From Escherichia phage HF4s, in the sequence record MT833387.1: DNA of 39,390 nt; one strand, written 5' to 3'. Position 1 is the first letter of the stretch; each line of letters starts with the position of its first letter. The notes beneath the pieces were generated by a model that was given only the letters and a program-made list of their open reading frames with translations, was not told the DNA's origin and made no database searches. This document shows positions 3,987 to 36,697 of this stretch, in pieces. The position numbers and the translations under genes are program-made.

Positions 3987-4870
3987 ATGGAAAACGAACT
4001 GATCATCGACGGTCAGGTTATTGACCTGTCTGAAACACAGGAAAATGCAGAAGAAACCATCATCCAAACAGAGTCACAGCCTGAGAATGAAAGCCAGGAT
4101 GACAACGGAAAAGAGATGGCAACTGATCCTGAAAAACCGAAGAGACACCAGAAGATTACGCCTTGCGTATTGGTGATGAAGAAATTCAGCTTAACGCTGA
4201 CGATGATGATCACATTGACGGGCAACCTGCACCGCAATGGGTGAAAGATCTTCGCAAAGGCTTCAAAGAAACACAGAAAGAAAACCGTGAGTTGCGCCGC
4301 CAGCTTGAGGAAGCATTAGCCAAGCCTGCGGAACATCAGCAACCACAACCAGACGCTATTCCACCAAAACCGACTCTTGAGTCGTGTGATTATGACGAAC
4401 AGGCGTTTGAACAGGCATTGACTGATTGGCATGAGAAAAAAGGCCGTGTCGAACAGCAGCAGCAACAAAAACTACGTCAGCAACAGGAATACCAACAGCG
4501 TTTCCAGCAAAGGGTAGAAGCGCATAAACAACGGGCAGCCAAACTTCCTGTGAAAGATTATCAGGAAATGGAGGCCATTGTTCTTAGTGAGCTACCACCA
4601 ATTCAGCAGGAAATCATCATTCACTGTGCAGACGAAGGCTCTGAACTACTCGCCTATGGCTTAGGTAAGAGCCAGCAATTACGCCAGCGTGTAGCCGCTG
4701 AGACAGATCCAATTCGCGCAGCATTCCTCTTGGGGCAGATTAGCAAACAGGTAAGCCTTGCTCCAAAACCAAAGAAAGCCATCAAGCCAGAGCCGGAAGT
4801 ACGTGGTGGCGGTGCTGATGCGAAACAAGACGAATTCAACAAATTATGCCCCGGCGCAAAAATCGAATAA
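3987..4870 (+). CDS. scaffolding protein (P22 gp8-like), split by apparent frameshift
   Basis: Two overlapping ORFs (3987..4244 and 4163..4870 with a TTG start) between portal and coat; acidic N-terminus and charged helical C-terminus typical of scaffold; frame change at the A5 run 4132-4136. Confidence 0.7.
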
Positions 4871-6846: not shown

Positions 6847-8265
6847 ATGCCTATTCAGCAACTTCCGCTTATGAAAGGTGTCGGCAAAGACTTCCGAAAC
6901 GCTGACTATATCGACTATCTGCCAGTGAATATGCTGGCTACACCCAAAGAAATCCTGAACAGCAGCGGATATCTTCGCTCATTCCCTGGCATTGCCAAAC
7001 GCTCTGATGTGAACGGTGTATCTCGCGGCGTCGAGTACAACATGGCACAAAATGCTGTTTATCGCGTGTGTGGTGGCAAGCTGTACAAAGGCGAAAGTGA
7101 AGTCGGTGACGTTGCCGGAAGTGGTCGCGTATCAATGGCGCATGGTCGAACATCACAGGCAGTAGGCGTTAATGGTCAACTGGTCGAGTATCGCTATGAT
7201 GGCACGGTTAAAACCGTCTCAAACTGGCCTACTGATAGCGGGTTCACTCAGTATGAGTTAGGCTCGGTCCGCGACATTACGCGCTTACGTGGGCGTTATG
7301 CGTGGTCAAAAGACGGAACTGATTCATGGTTTATCACTGACCTTGAAGACGAATCGCATCCTGACCGCTACAGCGCACAATATCGCGCAGAATCTCAGCC
7401 GGACGGCATCATCGGCATCGGAACATGGCGAGACTTCATCGTATGCTTTGGTTCATCAACGATTGAATATTTCTCCCTGACTGGGGCAACCACCGTTGGT
7501 GCCGCTTTGTATGTCGCACAGCCATCACTGATGGTGCAGAAAGGCATTGCCGGAACTTACTGCAAAACGCCATTCGCTGATTCTTATGCGTTCATCAGCA
7601 ATCCGGCAACAGGTGCGCCGTCTGTATATATCATCGGCTCCGGTCAGGTATCACCAATCGCCAGCGCGAGCATTGAGAAAATACTGCGCTCCTACACTGC
7701 TGATGAACTGGCTGATGGCGTGATGGAATCGTTGCGGTTTGATGCTCATGAGTTGCTGATTATTCACCTGCCGCGCCATGTTCTGGTGTACGACGCATCT
7801 TCAAGCGCCAATGGTCCGCAATGGTGTGTGCTGAAAACAGGCCTGTATGACGATGTGTACCGCGCTATCGACTTCATTTACGAAGGCAATCAGATAACAT
7901 GCGGCGATAAACTGGAATCCGTGACCGGGAAATTGCAGTTCGATATCAGCAGCCAGTATGGGCTACAGCAAGAACACCTGTTGTTTACACCACTCTTCAA
8001 AGCTGAGAACGCCAGATGTTTTGATCTGGAAGTTGAATCATCGACTGGTGTCGCTCAGTACGCTGACCGCCTGTTCCTCTCTGCAACCACTGACGGCATA
8101 AATTACGGACGTGAGCAGATGATTGAGCAGAATGAACCGTTCGTTTACGACAAACGCGTTTTGTGGAAGCGTGTCGGGCGAATCAGGAAAAATGTCGGCT
8201 TCAAACTTCGCGTTATCACGAAGTCACCTGTAACTCTGTCTGGCGCTCAGATAAGGATTGAGTAA
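6847..8265 (+). CDS. tail hub protein (P22 gp10-like)
   Basis: 472 aa, same length and position as P22 gp10. Confidence 0.8.
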
Positions 8266-8966
8266 TGGCGGATTCATCACTGAATAATCCTGTCGCGATT
8301 CAGGCTACGCGCCTTGATGCTTCAATTTTGCCACGCAATATATTCAGCCAGTCTTATCTGCTGTATGTCATAAATCAGGGAGCTGATGTCGGTGCAATTG
8401 CTGGGAAGGCAAATCAGGCTGGCCAGGGCGCTTACGATGCCCAGGTAAAAAACGATGAACAGGACGTAGAACTGGCTGATCACGACGCAAGAATCACCGC
8501 AAACACAAAAGCGATAAATCTCCTTGAGGTCAGGTTAACAACCGCCGAAGGGAAGATAGTCGTACTGCGTAGCGATGTTGATTACTTGCTGGATGAGGTT
8601 ATCGATATTCAGGCGCATCTGGTCACTGTTGACCAAAGACTGGATGGCGTAGAAAGCGATGTATCTGACATTAAGAGTGATTACGTATCGAAAACCGTAA
8701 CAGAATCGCAGTCTCTTGCGTCACCGCTGGATGTAAAAACATCATATTCAGTTGATGGAATTCAGGTAGTTGGAGCAAGGCAGACTGGATGGACTGCAGC
8801 CACAGGTACGCCACTTCTTGGCTCATTCAACGCTAACCAGTCATACACGGTCGGCACTACGTACACGCAATCCGAAGTCGCAGCTCTCGCAACAGGTTTG
8901 CAGCAGGCGCGGCAGCGTATTCTGGCGCTTGAAACAGCACTTAGATTACATGGGCTGATTGACTGA
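8265..8966 (+). CDS. tail needle protein (P22 gp26-like)
   Basis: 233 aa, same length as P22 gp26; heptad-rich central region consistent with a trimeric coiled-coil needle. Confidence 0.8.
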
Positions 8967-9421
8967 TGATTACATTCAAACCAACGCGAAACATCGACCT
9001 GATCGAAGCAGTCGGAAATCACCCTGACATTATCGCCGGTAGCAACAACGGCGATGGATACGACTACAAACCTGAATGCCGTTACTTTGAGGTGAACGTG
9101 CACGGGCAGTTCGGCGGAATTGTTTACTATCAGGAGATTCAGCCGCTGACCTTTGATTGCCACGCCATGTACCTGCCAGAGATTCGCGGATTCAGCAAGG
9201 AAATCGGGCTGGCTTTCTGGCGATACATTCTGACGAACACCACCGTTCAGTGCGTCACATCGTTCGCTGCACGCAAATTCCGCCACGGGCAGATGTACTG
9301 CGCAATGATTGGCCTTAAGCGTGTAGGAACCATCAAGAAATACTTCAAAGGCGTGGATGACGTGACGTTTTACAGCGCCACACGCGAAGAACTAATCGAC
9401 TTCCTGAATCACGGGAGATAG
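8966..9421 (+). CDS. P22 gp14-like virion protein
   Basis: 151-aa ORF in the gp14 position between needle and ejection genes. Confidence 0.6.
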   Translation: MITFKPTRNIDLIEAVGNHPDIIAGSNNGDGYDYKPECRYFEVNVHGQFGGIVYYQEIQPLTFDCHAMYLPEIRGFSKEIGLAFWRYILTNTTVQCVTSFAARKFRHGQMYCAMIGLKRVGTIKKYFKGVDDVTFYSATREELIDFLNHGR

Positions 9422-9423
9422 CC

Positions 9424-10116
9424 ATGTTATATGCATTTAAGCTGGGCAGAAAACTGCGCGGCGAGGAACCTTATTGCCCTGAAAAAGGCGGGAAAGGTGG
9501 CAGCTCTGATAAAAGCGCAAAGTATGCAGCAGAAGCTCAGAAGTATGCCGCAGACATGCAAAATCAGCAGTGGCAGACGATCATGAAAAACCTTGCTCCG
9601 TTCACGCCGCTTGCGGAGCAGTATGTTAACCAGCTTCAGAATCTTTCCAGTTTAGAAGGACAGGGGCAGGCACTTAATCAGTATTACAACTCTCAGCAGT
9701 ATAAAGACCTTGCAGGTCAGGCTCGCTACCAGAATCTTGCTGCTGCGGAGGCGACGGGGGGACTTGGTTCGACAGCCACAAGCAATCAACTGGCTACGAT
9801 CGCGCCGACACTCGGTCAGTCTTGGTTATCAAACCAGATGAGCAATTACAACAATCTGGCAAACGTTGGGCTTGGTGCTCTGCAAGGTCAGGCAAACGCC
9901 GGGCAGACGTACGCCAACAACATGAGCAGCATTGCACAGCAAAGCGCAGCTCTTGCCGCTGCTAATGCCAACAAACCATCAAGTCTTCAGACAGCAATTA
10001 GTAGCGGAACGTCTGGTGCGATTGCCGGTGCAGGTCTTGCCAGCCTTTTGGGAACATCAACACCTTGGGGCGCTGGCATTGGTGCTGGTATCGGATTGCT
10101 TGGTTCGTTGTTTTAA
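9424..10116 (+). CDS. ejection (internal virion) protein, P22 gp7-like
   Basis: 230 aa; Q/N/A-rich with Gly-rich hydrophobic C-terminus; position and size match gp7. Confidence 0.75.
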   Translation: MLYAFKLGRKLRGEEPYCPEKGGKGGSSDKSAKYAAEAQKYAADMQNQQWQTIMKNLAPFTPLAEQYVNQLQNLSSLEGQGQALNQYYNSQQYKDLAGQARYQNLAAAEATGGLGSTATSNQLATIAPTLGQSWLSNQMSNYNNLANVGLGALQGQANAGQTYANNMSSIAQQSAALAAANANKPSSLQTAISSGTSGAIAGAGLASLLGTSTPWGAGIGAGIGLLGSLF

Positions 10117-10125
10117 GGGGTAATC

Positions 10126-11514
10126 ATGGCTACTTGGCAAGGATCAAATGGCGGATTGTTGGCTGGTATCGGCGGCGTCAACTCAAACGCTCCGAGCGTA
10201 AATGACATCGGCAATACGCTTCAGCTTATCAGGCAGAACAATGATATTGAGCGTTCAGGCGCTAACAATGTTGGGCTGACTGCTTTGCAAGGCCTTTCAG
10301 GTATTGCGGGGGTGTTTCAGCAGGAAAAGCAGGCTCAGCGGCAGAAAGAATTTCAGCAGGCATACGCTAATGCTTATGCGTCTGGTGATCGCGGTGCTTT
10401 GCGTCAGTTGGCTACTCAATATCCAGACCAGATTGAATCCGTTCGTAAAGGCATGGGATTCATTGATGAAGAGCAGCGTAATTCTATCGGCACCTTAGCA
10501 GCTGGCGCACGCCTTGCGGCCTCGTCTCCAGAAGCAATGCAATCATGGCTGCAAAACAACGCCAAGGAACTGGCGCGCGTCGGCGTTGACCCTAACAACG
10601 TTGCTCAGATGTATCAGCAGAATCCTTCAGGATTTGGTGAGTTTGTTGATCACCTCGGAATGGCTGCTCTTGGTCCGATTGATTACTTCAATGTTCAGGA
10701 CAAGATGGCTGGTCGTGAGATTGACAGAGGCAGACTGGCAGAGACAATCCGCAGCAATCAGGCCGGAGAGGCGCTAACAGCACGAGGTCAAAACATCACG
10801 ATGCGCGGTCAGGATTTATCTGCTTCTACTGCGCGACGCGGTCAGGATTTGGCAATGCAGCGAGCGTCAACAAGAGGAACCGCTGGGAATGACGAGCGTA
10901 CAGTTCAGTTATCAGATGGCAGAACTGTAACGGTAGGCGGGAAGCTTCACGGCGCTGGGGCTAATGCGTTCTACGAAGGCATCGACAACGAGGGGAATAT
11001 GGTTCGCGTTCCTGCCAGTTCAATCGCAGCGCCTGCAACATCGTCTGCATCAGCACAAAACTATGCCATGAAGAAGGATATCGACGCGATCGCAAATGCA
11101 GACGCTTCTGCTCTCGATTTCATGACAGGAATGACCGGCGGTGCAGGTAACCCGGCAATTGGTGCTGATGTTCGCAGCCGATTAACAGGAAAAGAGCAGC
11201 GCCAGTTATATAACTCAGCACAACGTATTCAGGGAAGAATGCAGAATCAGGGCGTGGCGGCAGCAAGGGACATGGGTGCCAGTGGTATTAACACCGTTGC
11301 AGAAGCGAAGATGTATTTTCAGGGGATGCCGCAGGTTGACTATTCAAGCCCGGAGGCTATGCAGCAGTCGATTCGTGAAATTCAGGAATACACCAACAAT
11401 TACAACCAACAATATAACGTTAATGTTGGCAAATCTCAGCGGAAGCAATCTCAACCTGCACAGGTATCACAGCCAGCAGCCAGCAGTAACTTTTCTTCAC
11501 TATGGGGTGATTAA
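10126..11514 (+). CDS. ejection protein, P22 gp20-like
   Basis: 462 aa in the gp20 position. Confidence 0.75.
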
Positions 11515-13511
11515 TGGCTAAAGCATGGAAAGATGTTATCGCCTCTCCACAGTATCAGGCGTTAGCACCAGAACAAAAAGCGCAGGCTCAGGAGCAATAC
11601 TTCAATGAAGTCGTTGCTCCGCAAGCCGGAGAAAATGCAGAGCAGGCTAAGCAAGCTTTCTATGCTGCCTATCCATTGCCATCTGTGCAGCCAGTGGAGA
11701 CACAGCAACCAGTAGCACAGCAACAACCACAGCAAAGTGGATTCATGTCTGATCTTGGCGAAGCAGTAAAAGAGACTGGTCGCGGAATGGTGCAGGCTGG
11801 CGTGAACGTGGCAAACATACCTGCATCAGTTGCCGATGCTGTAATAAGCGCGGCGGCTTGGGCTGGCGGTAAACTCGGCATTGGCGATGGTACATATCAC
11901 CCAGCGCCACGAGTAACAACGCAGGGATTAGAGCAGGACTTTGGCCTTCAGCAAGGCGCGCTGACTCCACAAACGACAGAGGGCAGGGTGTTTGCTGAAG
12001 CATTGCCTTACCTCACTCCTGCTGGCGTTGAGAGAGCGGCAGCACAGGCACCAACACTTGCTGGTCGAATTGCTCAGGGGGCAACTCGCCTTCTAGCAGA
12101 AAACGCAGTTGGATCACTTGCTGCAAATAGTGCGAAAGATGATGCGGAAGCACTCGCCACCGATTTAGGCGTTGGTGTGCTGGCTGGCGGTGCTATTAAC
12201 GCTGCCGGACGTGGATTAGGTGCTGCTTATCGTGGCGTTCGTGGTGCTATTGCGCCAGAAGCGCAGCAGGCTATCAGATTTGCAGAGCGTGAAGGAGTTC
12301 CTCTGCACACCACAGACCTGTTACAGCCTACTTCCCGGGTCGGAAAAATGGCGCAGACTACAGCAGAAAATATCCCTCTGGCTGGCACAAGCGGAATGAG
12401 AGCAACGCAACAGGAAGCGAGAAGCCAGTTGGTGCAGAGATTTGCTGATAAATTCGGCGAGTACGATCCGGCAGTTGTTATTGACAGCCTTAAAGCGAAA
12501 ACATCAGGAATTCGTCGTGCTGCAGGGAGCCGTCTTGAGCAGGTTCAGAATGCAATGGCGGGAGTCAATATACAGCCTGCGCGAGCAATTCAGCAGATTG
12601 ATACTGAGATATCTAATCTGCAGAAGCTTGGTAAGGTAGCTGATAACGAGACAATTTCAAAACTTCAGTCATATCGTGATGAGCTTGTTCGTAATGCTGG
12701 CCCTGATGGTCCGGTAAATCTGGATTTGAAGCAATTAAGCGACCTGCGCAGCCAGTTCAGAATGGACGTGAAGGGTGAGCGACCAGTGTTACCAAACCGT
12801 TCCGATGCCGCCATTCAGCGCGTTTACAAGGCAATGACTGACGATATCAATGGTGCCATTGGTCAGAATCTTGGCAACGATACTCTCCGTAAATATCAGC
12901 AGGCCAATGCCGTCTACGCTGACGAAGCGGCGAAACTAAAGAATACCAGGCTGAAGAATGTTCTCATGAAAGGCGACCTGACGCCTGAGGTCGTAAACAA
13001 CATGCTTTTCAGTAAGAACAAGTCTGAGGTGCAGAACCTCTACAACTCTGTCGGCCAAGTAGGTCGGTCTCAGATGCGTAACGGCATTATCGGCAAGGCG
13101 ATGGAAAAATCAGGTGGCTCACCTGACCAGTTCCTGCGACAGGTTAACCTGATGTCTAACCAGACTGGAATCGCGTTTAAAGGTCGTGATGCTGCTTATC
13201 TGAAAGGGCTGAAGAACTACCTGGAGTCAACGAAGCGAGCAGGACAAGCAGGAGTAACAACGCCAACCGGCCAGCAGGCTATCCCGTTCATTATGGGAAT
13301 TGGCACTGTAACTAACCCAGCATTATTAGGGGTTGGAGGTGGATATGGCTTACTTGCAAGAATGTATGAGAGCGAACCAGCACGTAATGCGATGCTTCGC
13401 CTGGCAAATACCCCTAGAGGGTCTACCGTCTTCGAGAAAGCGTTATCTGACGTCGAGCGCATTGTTAATTCATTCGCTCAGGGCGCGAAGTCTGAGGCAT
13501 TAAGTGAATAG
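11514..13511 (+). CDS. ejection protein, P22 gp16-like
   Basis: 665 aa in the gp16 position; Gly/Ala-rich segments. Confidence 0.75.
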   Translation: MAKAWKDVIASPQYQALAPEQKAQAQEQYFNEVVAPQAGENAEQAKQAFYAAYPLPSVQPVETQQPVAQQQPQQSGFMSDLGEAVKETGRGMVQAGVNVANIPASVADAVISAAAWAGGKLGIGDGTYHPAPRVTTQGLEQDFGLQQGALTPQTTEGRVFAEALPYLTPAGVERAAAQAPTLAGRIAQGATRLLAENAVGSLAANSAKDDAEALATDLGVGVLAGGAINAAGRGLGAAYRGVRGAIAPEAQQAIRFAEREGVPLHTTDLLQPTSRVGKMAQTTAENIPLAGTSGMRATQQEARSQLVQRFADKFGEYDPAVVIDSLKAKTSGIRRAAGSRLEQVQNAMAGVNIQPARAIQQIDTEISNLQKLGKVADNETISKLQSYRDELVRNAGPDGPVNLDLKQLSDLRSQFRMDVKGERPVLPNRSDAAIQRVYKAMTDDINGAIGQNLGNDTLRKYQQANAVYADEAAKLKNTRLKNVLMKGDLTPEVVNNMLFSKNKSEVQNLYNSVGQVGRSQMRNGIIGKAMEKSGGSPDQFLRQVNLMSNQTGIAFKGRDAAYLKGLKNYLESTKRAGQAGVTTPTGQQAIPFIMGIGTVTNPALLGVGGGYGLLARMYESEPARNAMLRLANTPRGSTVFEKALSDVERIVNSFAQGAKSEALSE

Positions 13512-13666: not shown

Positions 13667-16042
13667 ATGTCAGATATCACAACAAATGCTGTTGTCGTAA
13701 ACCCACGCCCTATTTTCACCGACTCAAGAACGTTCCGAGCAGTTGCTAATGGTAAAATCTACGTAGGGAAAATAGACACCGACCCAACCATTCCATCAAA
13801 CCAGATCCCGGTCTACCTTGAAAATGAGAATGGTGACAAGGTTCAAATCCCTCAACCACTCATCGTAAATAACGCTGGCAAGATTGTTTACAACGGACAG
13901 TTAGCAAAGGTCGTAACGGTAAACGGTTATAGCATTGCCGTATATGACGCCTACGGTTCTCAAGTTGACTATATCCCAAACGTCCTTGGGTACGATCCAG
14001 ATAGCTTCAAAGACCAATTAGCTGGCCCAGACGGAGCATCGTTAATTGGTTATGGCAATGGAACGGTTGCAGATAAGCTTGATGAGCTTAAGACGCCATT
14101 TGACTTCGGCGCTAAAGGGGATGGAGTAACTGACGACACGCTGGCATTACAAGCATACATTGATGGTGTAGATGGCGACATTGACTTATACGGAAAAACT
14201 TATCTAGTTAGCAAAAACCCAGCACTTGCAACTACCTATCCAACGGAACCTGATTTAGCCAACAATGGATACAACTTCTGCCCGTGTCTCGCTATAGTTA
14301 ATAAAACCAATAAGAGAATCTTTAACGGCACACTCGTCAGCAAGGTATTTGGTCAGTCTGTTCTGTCTATCATCAACAGCACAGGAATAGAAGTTAACCT
14401 TAAAATTGTTGGGTTTGGTAAGTTTCCTGCCATTGACCACCCTAGTGGATATGCGGAAAAAGGATATTCAACTGGGGGCTACAATACGATTGATGGAGGC
14501 CTTCTTCTTGGCCCAAACAATTCAATCCCCACCTCCAGCTATACGCTAGGAAAGTACAATGGGGTATCAGGTCAGTTCCCAATATACGATGCCTCATGTA
14601 ACCCTACAGGTGGATATCAGTCTACTTGGGGTGCATTTGGAGGGGGTTACATTGGTAGCTATGCATGTGCTGTAACTATTCAGCGGGCATGCAAAAATAT
14701 AACACTACGCGGCTGTGAGATATACGGATTCAATGAAGCTGCTGTCGGCATTGGCATAAGATTTATTGTCAGCTCCACTGGATACACCGACTATACAACC
14801 GATGCTGATGTTCCTCGTGGGGTTAACGTCCTGGATTGCTATCTGCATGACTGCTACACAGCAGGAGTGCACGTATGCTCAGGGTACAATATTGTTTATG
14901 ACTCGTTAAGAGTGGAGAACATTGGTCATCCCAATGCAGATGACGCAACAGACACAGACATTAACCCAGGATACGGAGTAACAACATCAAGATTTAGAAA
15001 CATCCGAAACATAACTTGCGTGAATAGTTTCTTCCTAAATTGCAAACGCAAATCTATCGATTTCCATGCAGGCGGGCAATTGATAGTTGATGGAAACTAT
15101 TGCATGAGAACAGGTGTCAATGGCATATATTTTGAGGCGGGATTTGGTTGGGATAATGGATACGAGCCATATAACGTCATTGTTACTAACAATTACATTG
15201 TTACAAGAGCACTAGGCGTGGTTGGCACTGGTGGGATTTCCATGGTAGGAAATGGCTCCGCCCTAGCAGAGTCATACCCGTATCCTTTTTTGAAGTGTAA
15301 CAACAACTATATTGAGGTAAGGGCTGCCAACGGGGTGGGTATTAATAATGGTTACAACAATAACGATTACCACTATGAGGACATAAACATATGTGATAAT
15401 ACGGTTGTATACAAATCTGACACCTACACCCCGGGTCAGTTTGTTGCTATTCGTTGCAACCTAAATACTCCTTCATCTACTACTCTTCCGAAGCAAAACA
15501 TCAAGCTCTGTCGTAACAGCATAAAAATCCTGACAACGCTTGGTAATTACGCATTCGGAACTCCAATAACCATCGGTGGAACTCCTGCTGTTCTTATTGC
15601 AACCGATAATACAGTGGATATGGGGAACGTAGCTAATGGATCAAGTGCATGGTATGCGACAATTACCCCCAACCCAATAACTGACTATTACTTCTCAGGT
15701 AATAAAATACTTAACTACATTAAACCAGCCACTTTAAGACAAGCGGAAGTTATGTTCTATGACAACATAGGATTTACTGCCACAGGAACTTATGTTTCGA
15801 TAGCTATGCAGTGGTTTAGAGGGATATGGACGGTTGATGCAGCTGGTCTCGATTCACTTGCTGGCGCTAAGTCAGTTACCCTTGCATCTGACGGGGTCGG
15901 GATCACTCAGGGAACCCCGATACAACATGGGTCAATATCAGCTGCAATGACAATAAGTTCATCTAATATTGGGTTTACTACCACCGCCGGAACGACATGC
16001 TACGTTGGCGTAAAAATGAAACCTGTTGGTATTAAAGCATAA
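13667..16042 (+). CDS. tailspike protein: P22-type head-binding domain fused to a pectate-lyase-like beta-helix depolymerase domain
   Basis: 791 aa; first ~115 aa closely match the P22 gp9 head-binding domain (NPRPIFT...[16 protein letters not shown]...YDPD); remainder is unrelated to the P22 endorhamnosidase and carries the [13 protein letters not shown] motif of pectate-lyase-fold depolymerases. Confidence 0.9.
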
Positions 16043-16046
16043 ATAT

Positions 16047-16070
16047 GGCGGGGATACCCCCGCCTATTTT
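16047..16070. terminator. bidirectional intrinsic terminator between convergent tailspike and gtrC
   Basis: GGCGGGG-ata-CCCCGCC hairpin flanked by A/T runs on both sides. Confidence 0.6.
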
Positions 16071-17301
16071 ATTTCTGGTATATGTAATCGATACCGTAAT
16101 ATTCTCCAGCAGCTTTAGGGTTATGGAACTTATCAAGGCGATCCCCTAACCTGAAAGTGTTCTTCTCATTATATTTTGGCACTGTAATCACCTTTTCTCC
16201 AGAATGAATGCCTTTCTCTATCATTGCCACTCTGTCCAAGTATTGATTGTTTATATCTATGTAATATGATGACAACATGAAATAATCAACAAGAAATACA
16301 GGCAATAAAGTTAAAAGTAATACTGGCGTATAAAATTTTGAGATTTTCCCCTCAAATGAAGAAATTATCAGCGACAGACTTGCGAGAAGCAAAATAAAAC
16401 CAGTGGTCATAGCCCTTTGCGGATAGTAAGGTGCTGCAAACATAATTACATTCGAGCCGATTGCAAGGGCAAAGAATATAAAGGAGTATTGCATTTTTGT
16501 TTTATCATGCAGCATTGACAATGACGACAAAATAAACATTGATGTCATGATTACGATTATTAGTGCCCCATACTGCACAAGCATTTCAGGCATCCGGTCA
16601 AGCATGTGAAAGTAGATTCTTTCAGTTAAATCTTTTGAATACCATGAACTGAATGAAGGGCCGGAAGCCCTTGCTGCATTCCCAGGTGCCAAAAGCATGG
16701 AGGCAGAACCAACAAGTACAAATGGCAATAGAGCCAAATCTTTTACAGCGAAACGCTTGTTTATGAATGCCAATATACTATGACAAACGATAAATCCCAC
16801 AGAAAGCACCGCCACTGACTCATTCGATGCGCCAGCTAAAAATCCTAACGCAGCTTGTGGTATGGTAAATTTTACACCTTTCATTAAATTATTGCACAAG
16901 AGCATTAGAAGTAATGAAGGTATTAGATAATTAACAAACCCTACAACCCAAAAGGTATTTTGGCCTATGGAAGGGTTAAAAATAAAGAATGAAACCGCTA
17001 TTAAGCAGAATATAGCAGCCCCACCCTGAGCCATTCTCCTAATAACATGCATCAGAAGTATGCTAACTGTCGCGGTAACAGTTGCACTCATCGCATTAGA
17101 TTTAGCAAAAAGGATCATCGGACTAATAAAGTCTACTATGTATCTGCCGCTCCACCCCATATACATTGCAATATGCTTGTCAATGCTAAATCCAAGATTG
17201 CAGAATGCATAATCATCAGATTGCATTGGTGAAAGATAGCTTATTGCCCAAACCATCCCAAAGAAGGCAATATATGCGATAGGGTCTAAATACTTTTTCA
17301 T
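16069..17301 (-). CDS. gtrC: serotype-specific O-antigen glucosyltransferase, GtrC-type polytopic membrane protein
   Basis: 410-aa multi-pass membrane protein immediately downstream of gtrA-gtrB in the same orientation; visibly AT-rich relative to neighbours. Confidence 0.7.
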
Positions 17302-18214
17302 TTTCTTCCCTTCAGCACGTAACGAGGCCTATTCTTAACTTCTACGTAAATCCTGCCAATGTACTCACCGAGCACACCAATTCCTATTAGCTGAATACCG
17401 CCAAGAAAAAGAATAGAAACAAGGAGGGATGGATACCCACGAACCGCATTACCAAAGGCCAGGGTGTCTATAATCATCCACGCGCCGTACATAAACGCAG
17501 CACCGGCAACGAACAGGCCAATATAAGTCCACATGCGCAGTGGGAATGTTGAGAAGCTTGTGATCCCCTCAAGCGCCAGGTTCCATAGCTTCCAGCCGTT
17601 GAATTTGGTGCTTCCAGCCACTCGTTCTGCTCTGGCATACTCCACAACATCGGTACGGCCGCCAACCCAACTCAATACGCCTTTCATGAACAGGTTGCGC
17701 TCAGGCATGAGCTTAATGTTTTCTACCACCTCGCGAGACATTAGCCTGAAATCTCCAACATTTTCCTCGATCTGCGGGTTGCTGATTTTGTTATGCAGCT
17801 TATAGAACCACTCGGCGGTTTTCCTCTTCAGTCTGCCATCAGTTGAGCGGTCAGATCGTTTAGCAAGCACCATGTCAGCACCTGCTAGCCACTTTTCAAT
17901 CAGATGAGGAATGACCTCAATCGGGTCTTGCAGGTCAACATCAATAGGAATAACGGCATCACCTGTTGCATGGTCTAACCCTGCAAACAATGCTGGTTCT
18001 TTACCAAAGTTTCGTGTAAATGACAGCGGAACAACTAGAGGATCTGAAACGGACAGAGCGTTAATGATTGACTCCGTAGCGTCTTTGCTACCATCATTTA
18101 TAAAAACAATTTCCACTTCATATGGCTTCAACTCTTCGAATTCACGTACCGTTTTATAAAAATAGGTATCGCTTCCTCTTCGTTGAAGACAGGAACGACC
18201 AGAGATATCTTCAT
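17298..18214 (-). pseudogene. gtrB: bactoprenol glucosyltransferase GtrB, frameshifted after codon ~19
   Basis: ATG overlapping the gtrA stop encodes the canonical [19 protein letters not shown] and then terminates; the rest of GtrB ([10 protein letters not shown]...) continues in another frame; break at the T5 run (plus-strand A5, 18158-18162). Confidence 0.85.
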
Positions 18215-18573
18215 TTCGCATCCCTAAAGACAATGAACTTTGAATAGACGAAACCGCACACTAGGCTGATGGCGGAGAAGGTGACAAGAGTGACAATTGG
18301 AGGAAGTGCACATTTATCGGCAGCCCATCCAACAGTAGCACTCAGTGTTCCCATGAATCCTACATATAACATGTAGCGCATCGTTGTAGTCGAAGCTTTG
18401 AATGTGAATTTTGCATTCGCGAAGAAGCTAAAGCTCACAGCCACAACGAAACCTGCGAAGTTTGCAAGAGCCTGATTGGTGTGCGCGGCATAGATACATA
18501 CACCAAAAACCACCCAATGTATAAGTGTGTTCAGCACACCAATCGAGGTGTACTTTGCAAATAGCTTTAACAT
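18211..18573 (-). CDS. gtrA: GtrA flippase-like small membrane protein
   Basis: 120-aa hydrophobic protein with stop overlapping the gtrB start (ATGA); typical gtrA size and arrangement. Confidence 0.85.
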
Positions 18574-18706
18574 TTCTTCTATCAGCTAATAATCAAAGGC
18601 ATGAAGTCTATCATCCAAGCATCAATCGATCGATGACTTGCTGTGGTTGATGAGACAAAACTGAGATACACAAGGCTTTGTGACATTCGATAGTGGTTAA
18701 GGTCGA

Positions 18707-19900
18707 TCACTCCACCTTTTCATCAAGCCAGTCCGCCCACCACTGCATCATTTCTCTGCGCTTATCGAGATACTGAGCATGGTTGTAAATCCCACGCACA
18801 GATCCGCCGTTGGCATGTGCCAGTTGCACTTCAATAGCATCAGCAGGCCATTCGTGCTCGTTCATAATCGTGCTGAATTCATGCCTGAATCCGTGACCGC
18901 TTTCCAGACCCTCATAGCCGATTTGTTTGATCACAAGCAGTACCGCGTTCTCGCAGATTGGCTTCTTCTTATCGTTGCGCCCGGCAAAAACAAACTCTGA
19001 TACTGGTTTGGTGATTGAGCTTAGCGTAGTGAGAAGTTCAACCACCTGGTCTGACATAGGAACCACATGAATTTTGCGTCCTTTCATCACACTGGCGTCG
19101 ATGGTGATAATCCTGTTTTCAAAATCGACGTTCTTCCATAGCATGGAACGAAGCTCTTTCGTTCTTAGGGCTGTGTAGCGTAAAACTTTGGTCGCAATGA
19201 GCGATACGATACTTCCTGAAAATGTTGCCAGTGCTTTGTTGAATGCAGGGATCTGGTCTGCAGGAAGAAACGGGAAGTTCTTCTTGCGGTATCCCTTCAT
19301 GGCGTCAGCAAGGTCAGGTGCCGGGTTATATTTAGCCCTACCAGTGACAATAGCGTAACGGAAAACCTCGCCGCATCTTCTGCGGGCTTTGTTGGCTCGC
19401 TCCATTGCACCGCGATCTTCAAATCTGCGGATTACTTCCAACAGTTGCATCGGCTCAATATCCTGAATCTCAAGACCGCCGATGATGGGTAAAATGTCGT
19501 CATCAAACATTTTGGCAAGTTCAGTTGCATAGCCTACTGACCAGACTTGCTTCTTGTGCTCGTACCATTCCTTGTAAATCGCACTAAAGGAATTGTTGTT
19601 AGACGAAGCCTTTTTCGCCTTTACCGGATCGATGCCAACCGAGATGTCTTTCCTCGCAGTCCATGCTTTATCCCTTGCCTCTTGCAAAGTCATAAGCGGA
19701 TATTTTCCGACGGTCAGGATTTTCTCCTTACCGTCAATCTTGTAGCGAAGCTGCCATACCTTTTTCCCGGATACAGGGACATAAAGGTACAGGCCATTAC
19801 CATCGAGAAGGCGGTATGGTTTTTCTTTCGGCCTTGCTGCTTCAATCTGCTTAACGGTGAGCATGGGTAAAAATCCGGTGGGTAAAATTATTTTATCCAC
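18707..19900 (-). CDS. int: tyrosine integrase, P4-type (IntS-like)
   Basis: 397 aa with GTG start; N-terminal arm-binding-type domain and C-terminal catalytic domain with conserved R...H..R...Y region; attP-like sequence immediately upstream. Confidence 0.9.
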   Translation of the reverse strand: MDKIILPTGFLPMLTVKQIEAARPKEKPYRLLDGNGLYLYVPVSGKKVWQLRYKIDGKEKILTVGKYPLMTLQEARDKAWTARKDISVGIDPVKAKKASSNNNSFSAIYKEWYEHKKQVWSVGYATELAKMFDDDILPIIGGLEIQDIEPMQLLEVIRRFEDRGAMERANKARRRCGEVFRYAIVTGRAKYNPAPDLADAMKGYRKKNFPFLPADQIPAFNKALATFSGSIVSLIATKVLRYTALRTKELRSMLWKNVDFENRIITIDASVMKGRKIHVVPMSDQVVELLTTLSSITKPVSEFVFAGRNDKKKPICENAVLLVIKQIGYEGLESGHGFRHEFSTIMNEHEWPADAIEVQLAHANGGSVRGIYNHAQYLDKRREMMQWWADWLDEKVE

Positions 19901-20025: not shown

Positions 20026-20040
20026 TGGTGTCCCCTGCAG
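20026..20040. other. candidate attP core (reverse complement of the 3' end of an argW-type tRNA-Arg gene)
   Basis: TGGTGTCCCCTGCAG matches the complement of the tRNA acceptor 3' end, in the 213-bp gap between xis and int, as expected for P4-type integrases. Confidence 0.5.
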
Positions 20041-20113
20041 ACATCTACTTGAAGCGGCAGGGGATTGATTGGAATGGTGTTTTTTAGGTGTGAGAAATAT
20101 TTTACCCGCTATT

Positions 20114-20314
20114 TTACCCATTGGCGCGGCTTAAGAGCTTATTTTTGAATTCACAATGGTCACGATATAACCATCTTGCGCGTCCGTGGATAACTTTGGC
20201 TTTTGGCAGGTCGCCGGACTTAATCCGGTCATAGATGAAGGTTTTACCGAAGCCAGTATCGGCCATGATGAATTTCAAATCAACCAGGGAATCAGGCTGT
20301 AGTTCGTGTTGCAT
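20114..20314 (-). CDS. xis: excisionase / AlpA-family DNA-binding protein
   Basis: 66 aa with AlpA-like helix-turn-helix (IMADTGFGKTFIYDRIKSGDLP...GRARWLYRD); directly upstream of int. Confidence 0.7.
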   Translation of the reverse strand: MQHELQPDSLVDLKFIMADTGFGKTFIYDRIKSGDLPKAKVIHGRARWLYRDHCEFKNKLLSRANG

Positions 20315-36541: not shown

Positions 36542-36616
36542 GGGTCAGTCGTATAAAGGTCATTACGGAAGGCTGTTAACCTTCTTATCGTGGTTCGAGT
36601 CCACGCTGTCCCGCCA
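36542..36616 (+). tRNA. tRNA-Asn (anticodon GUU), phage-encoded
   Basis: Cloverleaf by hand: acceptor GGGTCAG/CTGTCCC (one mismatch), anticodon stem GAAGG/CCTTC with loop CTGTTAA, T-arm CGTGG-TTCGAGT-CCACG, encoded CCA. Confidence 0.55.
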
Positions 36617-36621
36617 AATAT

Positions 36622-36697
36622 GCTGGTTTAGCTCCAATGGTAGAGCAGTCGCCTTGTAAGCGAATGGGTAGCGGTTCAAGTCCGTTAACCAGCACCA
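36622..36697 (+). tRNA. tRNA-Thr (anticodon UGU), phage-encoded
   Basis: Perfect 7-bp acceptor GCTGGTT/AACCAGC, D-arm GCTC-CAATGGTA-GAGC, anticodon loop CTTGTAA, T-arm AGCGG-TTCAAGT-CCGTT, encoded CCA. Confidence 0.6.

Follow-up and report, generated by a model that had tools for sequence, protein, structure and literature searches.

What is the three-gene block beside the integrase gene of Escherichia phage Hf4s, is it intact, and where in the prophage does it come to lie? The window analyzed here, MT833387.1 (39,390 bp), is the complete genome of this Sf6-like Lederbergvirus. We are confident that the block is a gtrABC lysogenic-conversion operon, whose genes are presumably transcribed in the prophage and whose activity attaches a single side-chain glucose to the O22-like O-antigen of the host, and that the frameshift in its deposited gtrB is a homopolymer under-call. 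The operon is an ordinary member of the well-known Gtr system.

Glucosylation and phage exclusion by Hf4s gtrABC are already known from the literature. The O-seroconversion cluster was published by Kulikov et al. 2021 (bioRxiv 10.1101/2021.06.09.447823; AEM 87:e0112421; MT833387), whose preprint describes it as composed of GtrC, GtrB and a flippase, with GtrC being a distant relative of that of epsilon34. According to the same preprint, NMR of E. coli 4s(Hf4s) lysogens revealed an extra side-chain Glcp on O-4 of GalNAc residue E, adsorption or infection by Hf4s and DT57C was lost in the lysogens, and their LPS ladder was unshifted despite the unambiguous NMR. The NMR result is not proof of functional phage gtrA and gtrB, because strain 4s, the host, already possesses gtrA, gtrB and gtrO22 of its own. 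The text of the preprint contains no mention of the gtrB frameshift or of attP, and no statement was found there on how argW and attP are arranged, on the structure of the leader, on a GT-C fold of GtrC or on the Enterobacter gtrABC-tailspike block.

The broader consequences of such a module, namely an altered O-antigen, a block to superinfection and a change in how susceptible gut E. coli are to other phages, have all been published for Hf4s. Added here are the following points: gtrB as well as the scaffolding and portal genes are disrupted in the deposited genome by probable homopolymer under-calls; function was proven, in the published work, in a host that itself possesses gtrAB; int and the operon remain joined at the argW end, which is not the case in P22 and epsilon34; and gtrC appears to travel with a matching tailspike body.

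Position of the operon and its leader

The three minus-strand ORFs share one orientation and lie downstream of an IntS-type integrase gene (Table 1). Exactly 133 bp separate the int stop codon, located at 18707, from the ATG of gtrA (18573); the initial annotation had described a co-oriented three-gene cassette directly past int with this very gap, and its description holds. Both the gtrA/gtrB and the gtrB/gtrC junctions are ATGA overlaps, the latter at 17301/17298, and gtrC, the third gene, is translationally coupled. The first gene, gtrA, encodes a small GtrA-family flippase with 78-100% identity to known GtrA proteins, the upper value being that of E. coli prophage L004. At the far end of the operon, gtrC is convergent with the tailspike gene, and the hairpin of their common terminator has a stem of seven G-C pairs, a 4-nt loop and T-rich tails on both strands. 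The tailspike itself consists of a P22-type head-binding N-domain followed by an O-antigen-specific receptor-binding body.

Table 1. Features of the gtr region of phage Hf4s (coordinates in MT833387.1).
Feature	Coordinates	Strand	Evidence or remark
Tailspike, 791 aa	13667..16042	+	PF09008, E 1.2e-52; protein identical to QOI58119.1 of Escherichia phage HF4s
Bidirectional intrinsic terminator hairpin, common to tailspike and gtrC	16047..16064	.	
gtrC, serotype-specific GT-C glucosyltransferase, 410 aa, AT-rich	16069..17301	-	
gtrB, GT2 bactoprenol-phosphate glucosyltransferase, frameshifted as deposited	17298..18214	-	PF00535
T5 run (A5 on + strand), gtrB frameshift site	18158..18162	-	T6 in relatives
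gtrA, Und-P-glucose flippase, 120 aa	18211..18573	-	PF04138, E 2.2e-13
gtr leader, 133 bp, with P22-homologous gtr core promoter	18574..18706	-	Offset alignment with P22
Integrase, IntS/argW type	18707..19900	-	PF13356, PF22022, PF00589
attP core, identical to tRNA-Arg(CCT) argW 3' end	20026..20040	.	HK620 'attP core' annotation maps here
TorI/HkaC-like excisionase	20114..20314	-	Homologues: HK620 hkaC, Sf6 gene 18 (annotated as excisionase / TorI)

The int gene of Hf4s is 96-97% identical at the nucleotide level to those of HK620, Sf6 and N7; its program-called ORF opens at GTG 19900, and homologues (385 aa, the annotated intS length) start at Met 19864. The attP core matches the corresponding annotation not only of HK620 but also of Sf6. 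In the E. coli prophage remnant L005, homology to Hf4s starts at 20040, within argW (7181-7255), and Hf4s positions 20026-20040 equal remnant positions 7241-7255 within tRNA-Arg(CCT). Likewise, in the 470 out of 5,426 complete E. coli genomes that carry an argW-intS-gtrAB block, the match stops at 20040, adjoining tRNA-Arg. The excisionase gene is located across attP from int. Since attP lies upstream of int, int and gtrABC stay linked at the attL end after integration (in the order argW-attL-int-gtrABC), with the operon about 1.5 kb from attL, beside argW, and the earlier placement of the operon at the prophage end is thereby supported. An arrangement as in P22, where attP separates int from gtrA, was also considered and rejected, because both the HK620 annotation and L005 place attP upstream of int.

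The promoter in the leader was assigned through positional homology to P22. It comprises a -35 element TCGATC (18633-18628) that includes the GATC-4 site, a 17-nt spacer and a -10 element TAGACT (18610-18605); relative to gtrA, the GATC at -58 and the -10 hexamer at -37 to -32 occupy the same offsets in Hf4s and P22. A generic sigma-70 consensus scan gave no leader site above threshold and no excess of promoter-like sites. The initial count of two GATC sites in the leader is acceptable: the one at 18628-18631 is wholly inside, and that at 18705-18708 straddles the int stop codon. These correspond to -58 and -135, the only GATC positions in this region of Hf4s, as compared to -135, -122, -71 and -58 in P22. 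A search of the 220 bp upstream of gtrA for OxyR half-sites with at least 8/10 matches to ATAGnTnnnAnCTAT returned none, and the same search in P22 returned three (-134, -102 and -70). Of the elements defined by Broadbent 2010, Hf4s has the core promoter with GATC-4 inside the -35 element, and lacks both the four GATCs arranged in two pairs (13 bp within a pair) and the three OxyR half-sites spaced by ~32 bp over the GATC pairs.

Because the leader amounts to a -35 (GATC-4)/-10 core without OxyR half-sites, no Dam/OxyR phase switch is evident, as had been suspected from the GATC count, and GATC-4 alone has been kept. The -35/GATC-4 and -10 elements alone do not confer phase variation (Davies 2013). 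Operons with only these elements are without the phase-variation signature, as is the epsilon34 operon, and S. Choleraesuis SCB67_I displays no phase variation (Broadbent 2010; Davies 2013). The Hf4s leader has the appearance of a simple gtr promoter of the constitutive type, and expression of the operon is probably constitutive. The GATC at -135, which has the offset of P22 GATC-1, was evaluated as a possible switch remnant and rejected, since it belongs to the int stop codon and is accompanied neither by a second GATC to pair with nor by an OxyR half-site. In L005, the argW relative, the same GATC is at -155, the difference being due to a 20-bp deletion in Hf4s. Just after int, the leader also contains a degraded hairpin, which folds at -6.9 kcal/mol (z 0.0).

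The gtrB frameshift

As deposited, gtrB is not intact and does not encode a full-length enzyme. One nucleotide is missing from a T6 run, which produces a -1 frameshift after codon 19, so that the frame from ATG 18214, which overlaps the gtrA stop, ends after 28 codons, and the program-called 311-aa ORF opens at an out-of-frame TTG (18233). Insertion of a single T yields a 305-aa protein that is 100% identical to the intact GtrB of L004 and 87-95% identical to GtrB of epsilon34, P22 and E. hormaechei. The run reads T6 in all six related E. coli loci listed (L003-L008), no other indel separates Hf4s from L004 over 10.1 kb, and an exact search of IMG/VR for the frameshifted T5 sequence gave no match. 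Compared to Sf6, lesions of the same A6-to-A5 type are found at ~1865 (portal), ~4131 (scaffold) and ~38814, and the first two truncate the portal gene and split the scaffolding gene, respectively, of this plaque-forming phage. Homopolymer under-calling is an error mode of IonProton chemistry. Since Hf4s is viable and was sequenced by IonProton, yet shows the identical lesion in its scaffold and portal genes, the gtrB break is very probably a sequencing artefact rather than biology. The genome was obtained as a single 39,390-bp contig (MT833387) by IonProton sequencing at 45x, according to the preprint (Kulikov et al. 2021, bioRxiv 10.1101/2021.06.09.447823).

If the frameshift were real, only gtrC and perhaps gtrA would be functional, and seroconversion would proceed via interchangeable host GtrA and GtrB. 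We regard this as improbable, even though the deposited sequence does read T5, the run is the sole indel in 10.1 kb relative to L004 and strain 4s could draw on its own gtr genes: the damaged scaffolding and portal genes of a phage that forms plaques, the tendency of the platform to under-call homopolymers, the absence of any further change in the repaired GtrB relative to its intact homologue and the T6 in all six loci listed argue against it. Such an arrangement has a precedent in Salmonella family II gtr operons, in which a conserved gtrB deletion is always accompanied by a second gtr operon (Davies 2013). The preferred reading nevertheless remains an under-called T6 run. Practically no weight can be given to the T-run as a slipped-strand contingency locus, an ON/OFF switch replacing the missing Dam/OxyR switch. 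The frameshift does fall in a homopolymer near the gtrB 5' end and downstream of a leader without an epigenetic switch, but six bases are short for an efficient contingency tract, the listed relatives all have T6, and a sequencing artefact is indicated by the occurrence of this lesion in essential genes.

GtrC and the linked tailspike

With a GC content of 0.380, where the genome averages 0.475 (sd 0.031, 1,233-bp windows), gtrC is the single lowest 1,233-bp window of the genome, and only 0.03% of windows are as low. The initial annotation had considered gtrC more AT-rich than its flanks and horizontally acquired. The first point is confirmed by the windowed GC, and the second is supported by the same low GC together with the distribution of the gene: megablast finds no Hf4s gtrC in any of the 5,426 complete E. 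coli genomes, and a 96%-identical gtrC is present in an Enterobacter hormaechei prophage. A GtrC profile run against GTDB species-representative genomes was uninformative on host range, since it found no Enterobacteriaceae and its matches were all distant (22-29%) and confined to uncultured MAGs. The 33 relatives in IMG/VR are all ~30% identical, none of them representing the Hf4s subtype.

The family of GtrC, for which a profile search had been proposed as a check, could be assigned. The protein matches Pfam PF19528 (DUF6056 / GT_STM0557_N) with 168.6 bits against a gathering threshold of 27, its residues 3-408 covering profile positions 5-438 of 442. This is also the family of phage epsilon34 GtrC; NCBIfam has no model matching GtrC or GtrA. 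The predicted GtrC structure is nearly all-helical, as expected for a polytopic membrane protein. Fold comparison assigned to it a GT-C glycosyltransferase fold and was alone in giving a match, a sequence-profile search of the PDB having returned nothing. Two residues, D29 and D30, located just past helix 1, are invariant across 33 homologues (18-96% identity) and would be a candidate catalytic pair, presumably placed in the first periplasmic loop by the usual GT-C topology. The idea that the protein in the GtrC position is some other O-antigen modifier, such as an acyltransferase as in Salmonella family II / BTP1 GtrC, is already refuted in practice: acetyltransferases do occupy the gtrC position in some operons (BTP1 GtrC has an acyltransferase domain) and PF19528 was long labelled DUF6056, but Hf4s GtrC has no acyltransferase domain, its model has the GT-C fold, it is homologous to epsilon34 GtrC, and NMR of the lysogen O-antigen, as described in the preprint, showed added glucose and an unchanged O-acetyl pattern (Kulikov et al. 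2021).

For GtrC as a glucosyltransferase, the order of biochemical steps would follow the established Gtr pathway. GtrB, a GT2 enzyme at the cytoplasmic face, would convert UDP-glucose to undecaprenyl-phosphate-glucose, GtrA would flip the latter to the periplasmic face, and the 410-aa GtrC of the DUF6056/GT_STM0557 family would transfer glucose to O-4 of one GalNAc per O-unit, with the operon presumably being expressed from the prophage by its constitutive-type promoter. Glucosylation of the O-antigen prevents Hf4s, and likewise phage DT57C, from adsorbing.

The Enterobacter hormaechei prophage carries the same gtrABC (GtrC 96% identical) along with a tailspike that is 83% identical over residues 115-791; its tailspike N-domain is different and its tail genes are non-P22. 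In an E. coli P22-like podovirus, the gtrABC-tailspike block occurs in two different integration contexts. We tentatively suggest that the 4.5-kb unit of gtrABC and tailspike body may be a 'receptor-reader plus receptor-masker' cassette mobile across unrelated phages and genera, and that the DUF6056/GT_STM0557 family might specify O-4 of galacto-configured residues. The acceptor residue of epsilon34 is Gal. If such a specificity is true, the modification would be predictable from sequence.

Comparison with known gtr systems

The gtrABC operon of epsilon34 (GtrC family VIII) encodes a GtrC that is 30% identical to that of Hf4s over ~400 aa, both belonging to PF19528, and has 30-40% identity to S. 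Typhimurium STM0557 (STM0557-0559, family III). Like Hf4s, epsilon34 is a P22-like phage, in which gtrC is convergent with the tailspike gene across a terminator and the leader has a lone GATC (-57) without OxyR sites. However, epsilon34 GtrC is longer (551 aa) owing to a ~140-aa C-terminal extension missing in Hf4s, and attP of epsilon34 lies between int and gtrA, which places int and gtr at opposite prophage ends. The STM0557 operon is Dam/OxyR phase-variable (Broadbent 2010; Davies 2013). Its product adds Glc 1-4 to Gal (Davies 2013); similarly, in Hf4s glucose is added to O-4 of GalNAc, as reported in the preprint (Kulikov et al. 2021).

P22 GtrA and GtrB are 78% and 88% identical to the respective Hf4s proteins, and the core promoter geometry is identical. 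In contrast, P22 GtrC (486 aa) has no significant similarity to Hf4s GtrC (E 0.13), its attP is between int and gtrA, and its operon, with four GATCs and three OxyR half-sites, is phase-variable (Broadbent 2010).

The int-proximal part of the Hf4s operon has its counterpart in the argW-intS-yfdG-yfdH-gtrC prophage ends of E. coli (CPS-53/KpLE1 type), which have the Hf4s attP core, the contiguous int-gtrA-gtrB order and a similarly short int-gtrA spacer (133 bp in the closest, XYEH3934). Nucleotide identity of their integrase genes is ~97% in the best matches and 94-97% in the E. coli genome matches. In the 470 E. coli genomes with this block, the gtrC genes are of other types, one example being that for a 477-aa 'glucosyltransferase domain-containing protein'. 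Finally, Sf6 carries oac in the int-tailspike 'moron' slot of its integration module, where Hf4s carries gtrABC.

The gtrABC operon and the deposited sequence

Reading frames and Pfam matches (table) bear out the initial annotation of a three-gene gtr cassette co-oriented with the integrase gene (int) and lying 133 bp downstream of it. This is a standard GtrABC serotype-conversion operon, which was experimentally characterised earlier for Hf4s. The tailspike is an exact protein match to QOI58119.1 of 'Escherichia phage HF4s'. The sequence is Sf6-like, with the same start base as Sf6 and 96% identity to it across 58% of the first 25 kb. According to Kulikov et al. (2021; preprint, then AEM), Hf4s was isolated on horse-gut E. 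coli 4s with an O22-like O-antigen and was sequenced by IonProton (45x, single 39,390-bp contig, MT833387), and the authors already remarked on the Gtr cluster and the distant kinship of its GtrC to that of epsilon34. They also report that Hf4s lysogens lose Hf4s adsorption and resist phage DT57C, and 2D NMR proved that GalNAc residue E of the lysogen O-unit bears one extra Glcp at O-4 while O-acetylation stays unaltered. The LPS structural analysis initially suggested as a check is therefore already published, and it supports the proposed glucosylation.

Features of the int–gtr–tailspike region
Feature	Coordinates or length	Strand	Basis
Integrase ORF	19900..18707	minus	ORF listing and direct strand reading
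Spacer int–gtrA	133 bp	minus	ORF listing and direct strand reading
gtrA	18573..18211	minus	ORF listing and direct strand reading; PF04138
gtrB	ATG 18214 to 17298	minus	ATGA overlap with gtrA stop; PF00535 (GT2)
gtrC	17301..16069	minus	ATGA overlap with gtrB; PF19528
Terminator hairpin, perfect 7 G-C pairs	16047-16064	both	scored as terminator on each strand
Tailspike gene, convergent with gtrC	13667..16042	plus	ORF listing

The integrase has Arm-DNA-bind_3, Phage_int_M and Phage_integrase domains (Pfam). Its mechanically called ORF opens at a GTG, 12 codons ahead of the Met at 19864 used by 385-aa IntS homologues, and this N-terminal extension (19865-19900) is probably untranslated. Elsewhere, tRNA-Asn(GTT) and tRNA-Thr(TGT) genes lie 3′ of the late promoter region (36542-36697), likewise in Sf6 and phage 21.

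As deposited, gtrB reads in frame for 19 residues, shifts, and stops after 28 codons. The lesion lies in a run of five Ts, six in all 6 related E. coli loci inspected, and is the sole indel across a 10.1-kb alignment to prophage L004, which is 99% identical. With a single T restored, gtrB encodes a 305-aa protein 100% identical to GtrB of L004. On the plus strand this is an A6 to A5 change, and the same change, uncompensated, is found relative to Sf6 at ~1865, ~4131 and ~38814. The first puts the portal gene out of frame past codon 7 (MAETLEK), the ORF resuming at ATG 1883, and the second breaks the scaffolding gene in two (ORFs 3987..4244 and 4163..4870). Almost certainly, all three deletions are homopolymer errors of IonProton sequencing in the Hf4s genome as deposited. 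Because IonProton is prone to homopolymer under-calls, and loss of the scaffolding protein is implausible in a plaque-forming phage, the gtrB frameshift is itself very probably a sequencing artefact. A genuine frameshift complemented by the host is the residual alternative; it is compatible with published data because strain 4s bears its own gtrA, gtrB and gtrO22 (the strain with these deleted, 4sGTR, is Hf4s-sensitive), but the recurrence of the same change at three other sites, two of them breaking portal and scaffolding genes, makes it improbable. The assembly errors of the deposited genome may be worth reporting.

Family, composition and mobility of gtrC

The profile search placed GtrC not in a non-glycosyltransferase family but, over its full length, in PF19528 (DUF6056, GT_STM0557_N in the newer Pfam release; E 2.5e-49), and its nearest characterised relative is epsilon34 GtrC (30% identity across residues 11-407). 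The latter is 30-40% identical to STM0557 (Villafane et al.) and has 551 aa, whereas Hf4s GtrC (410 aa) lacks its ~140-aa C-terminal extension. Hf4s GtrC is rare: about five close relatives, at 70-96% identity, were found in a collection of 5.8 billion proteins, in E. coli and Enterobacter hormaechei; beyond them, identity falls to about 30% or below. D29 and D30, directly past the first helix, are invariant among homologues down to 18% identity. GT-C enzymes have a conserved acidic pair in the first extracytoplasmic loop, and by analogy D29-D30 would be a pair of this kind, similarly placed.

The reported AT-richness of gtrC is confirmed: its GC content is 38.0%, where the genome averages 47.5% (sd 3.1%, windows of equal size), and is the lowest for any window of its size in the entire sequence. 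The int-gtrAB backbone is common among E. coli genomes; megablast detected Hf4s gtrC in 0 of 5,426 complete ones. One complete genome with the int-gtrAB block has another gtrC (477 aa) and another tailspike at the same positions. At least 20 draft contigs encode exact Hf4s GtrC, a protein named as E. coli in the sources, in two contexts, namely, P22-like prophages adjoining ybhB/bioA and an argW prophage remnant (L005). The former have no integrase on the gtrA side, and in two of them (L004, L008) the gtr leader is still preceded by 84 bp left over from the IntS 3′ end. The leftover and the int-less ends suggest that a phage integrating by other means captured the cassette from a phage of the argW type.

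The E. coli drafts L003, L004, L006, L007 and L008 (about 8200-8730) hold near-identical P22-like prophages stopping at gtrA beside ybhB-bioA. The L005 remnant (7181-12585, GCA_004172365.1) is decayed and has intS, intact gtrA and gtrB, an Hf4s-identical gtrC and a tailspike reduced to its C-terminal 440 residues, with host genes directly after; here, the gtr operon survived longer than the remaining phage. In phage N7, homology to Hf4s (L002 5001-5192, corresponding to 18515-18706) spans the gtr leader and reaches ~59 bp into gtrA, and gtr genes are not annotated there; this stretch looks like the scar of a gtr cassette lost from the int-tailspike slot.

Prophages of E. hormaechei encode GtrC, GtrB and GtrA 96%, 95% and 86% identical to those of Hf4s. 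The body of their 791-aa tailspike (residues 111-791) is 83% identical to the Hf4s protein; its N-terminal domain, unlike that of Hf4s, is PF18668, and the adjacent tail genes are not P22-like. Judging from these sequences, the specificity gene gtrC is mobile and appears to move jointly with the matching tailspike body. Such co-transfer, linking a podovirus of E. coli to an Enterobacter prophage with another type of tail, may be worth reporting. The 96% identical copy, the lowest GC content and the megablast result also uphold the horizontal acquisition initially proposed for gtrC. In L009 (8728-13637, GCA_031509115.1) and L010-L014, the gtrABC-tailspike block lies among TMP, Dit-like and sheath-initiator-like tail genes.

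Leader elements and prophage geometry

The leader contains few GATC sites, as first noted: one at 18628 and a second at 18705-18708, straddling the int stop codon. Our script located P22 GATC sites at -135, -122, -71 and -58 from the gtrA ATG and three OxyR half-sites at -134, -102 and -70, that is, every one described, in agreement with Broadbent et al.; at the threshold of at least 8/10 consensus positions, it found no OxyR half-site in the Hf4s leader. Hf4s retains only the equivalent of the P22 core promoter, TCGATC (GATC-4 at -58) separated by 17 nt from TAGACT at -37..-32, where P22 has TACACT. According to Davies et al., the phase-variation signature is absent from the epsilon34 operon and from an operon keeping only the -35/GATC-4 and -10 elements, and the latter shows no phase variation. 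The initial view that no Dam/OxyR switch is evident is supported by these observations. The Hf4s GATC in the int stop codon owes its offset of -135 solely to a 20-bp deletion, and this deletion has degraded the post-int hairpin as well (-6.9 kcal/mol, z 0.0, versus -16 and -18 kcal/mol in relatives); some read-through of int transcripts is conceivable.

The hairpin element, CAAAGCCTTGCAA...TTTGT...TTTTGTC (18640-18706), is conserved upstream of the gtr promoter in P22, epsilon34, L003 and L005; the deletion shortens it in Hf4s and L004, and folding is no better than for shuffled sequence. The E. hormaechei leader (L009 type) keeps a P22-like GATC-3/GATC-4 pair (-71/-58) and TACACT -10, the upstream pair being gone.

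The integrase is of the IntS/argW type, with 96-97% nucleotide identity to those of HK620 and Sf6, whose annotated attP cores map to 20026-20041, upstream of int. In L005, homology starts at 20040, 15 nt within tRNA-Arg(CCT), and the tRNA-Arg-intS-yfdG(gtrA)-yfdH(gtrB) block, present in 470 of the 5,426 complete E. coli genomes, matches up to exactly 20040. With attP upstream of int, integration gives argW-attL-int-gtrA-gtrB-gtrC and then, on the opposite strand, the tailspike gene, and the operon does sit at the prophage end, as had been anticipated. This linkage of the gtr operon to int in the argW geometry may be worth reporting: P22 and epsilon34 have attP in the interval from int to gtrA, which places the two genes at opposite prophage ends. 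In Sf6, the O-acetylase gene oac fills the int-tailspike slot that holds gtrABC in Hf4s.
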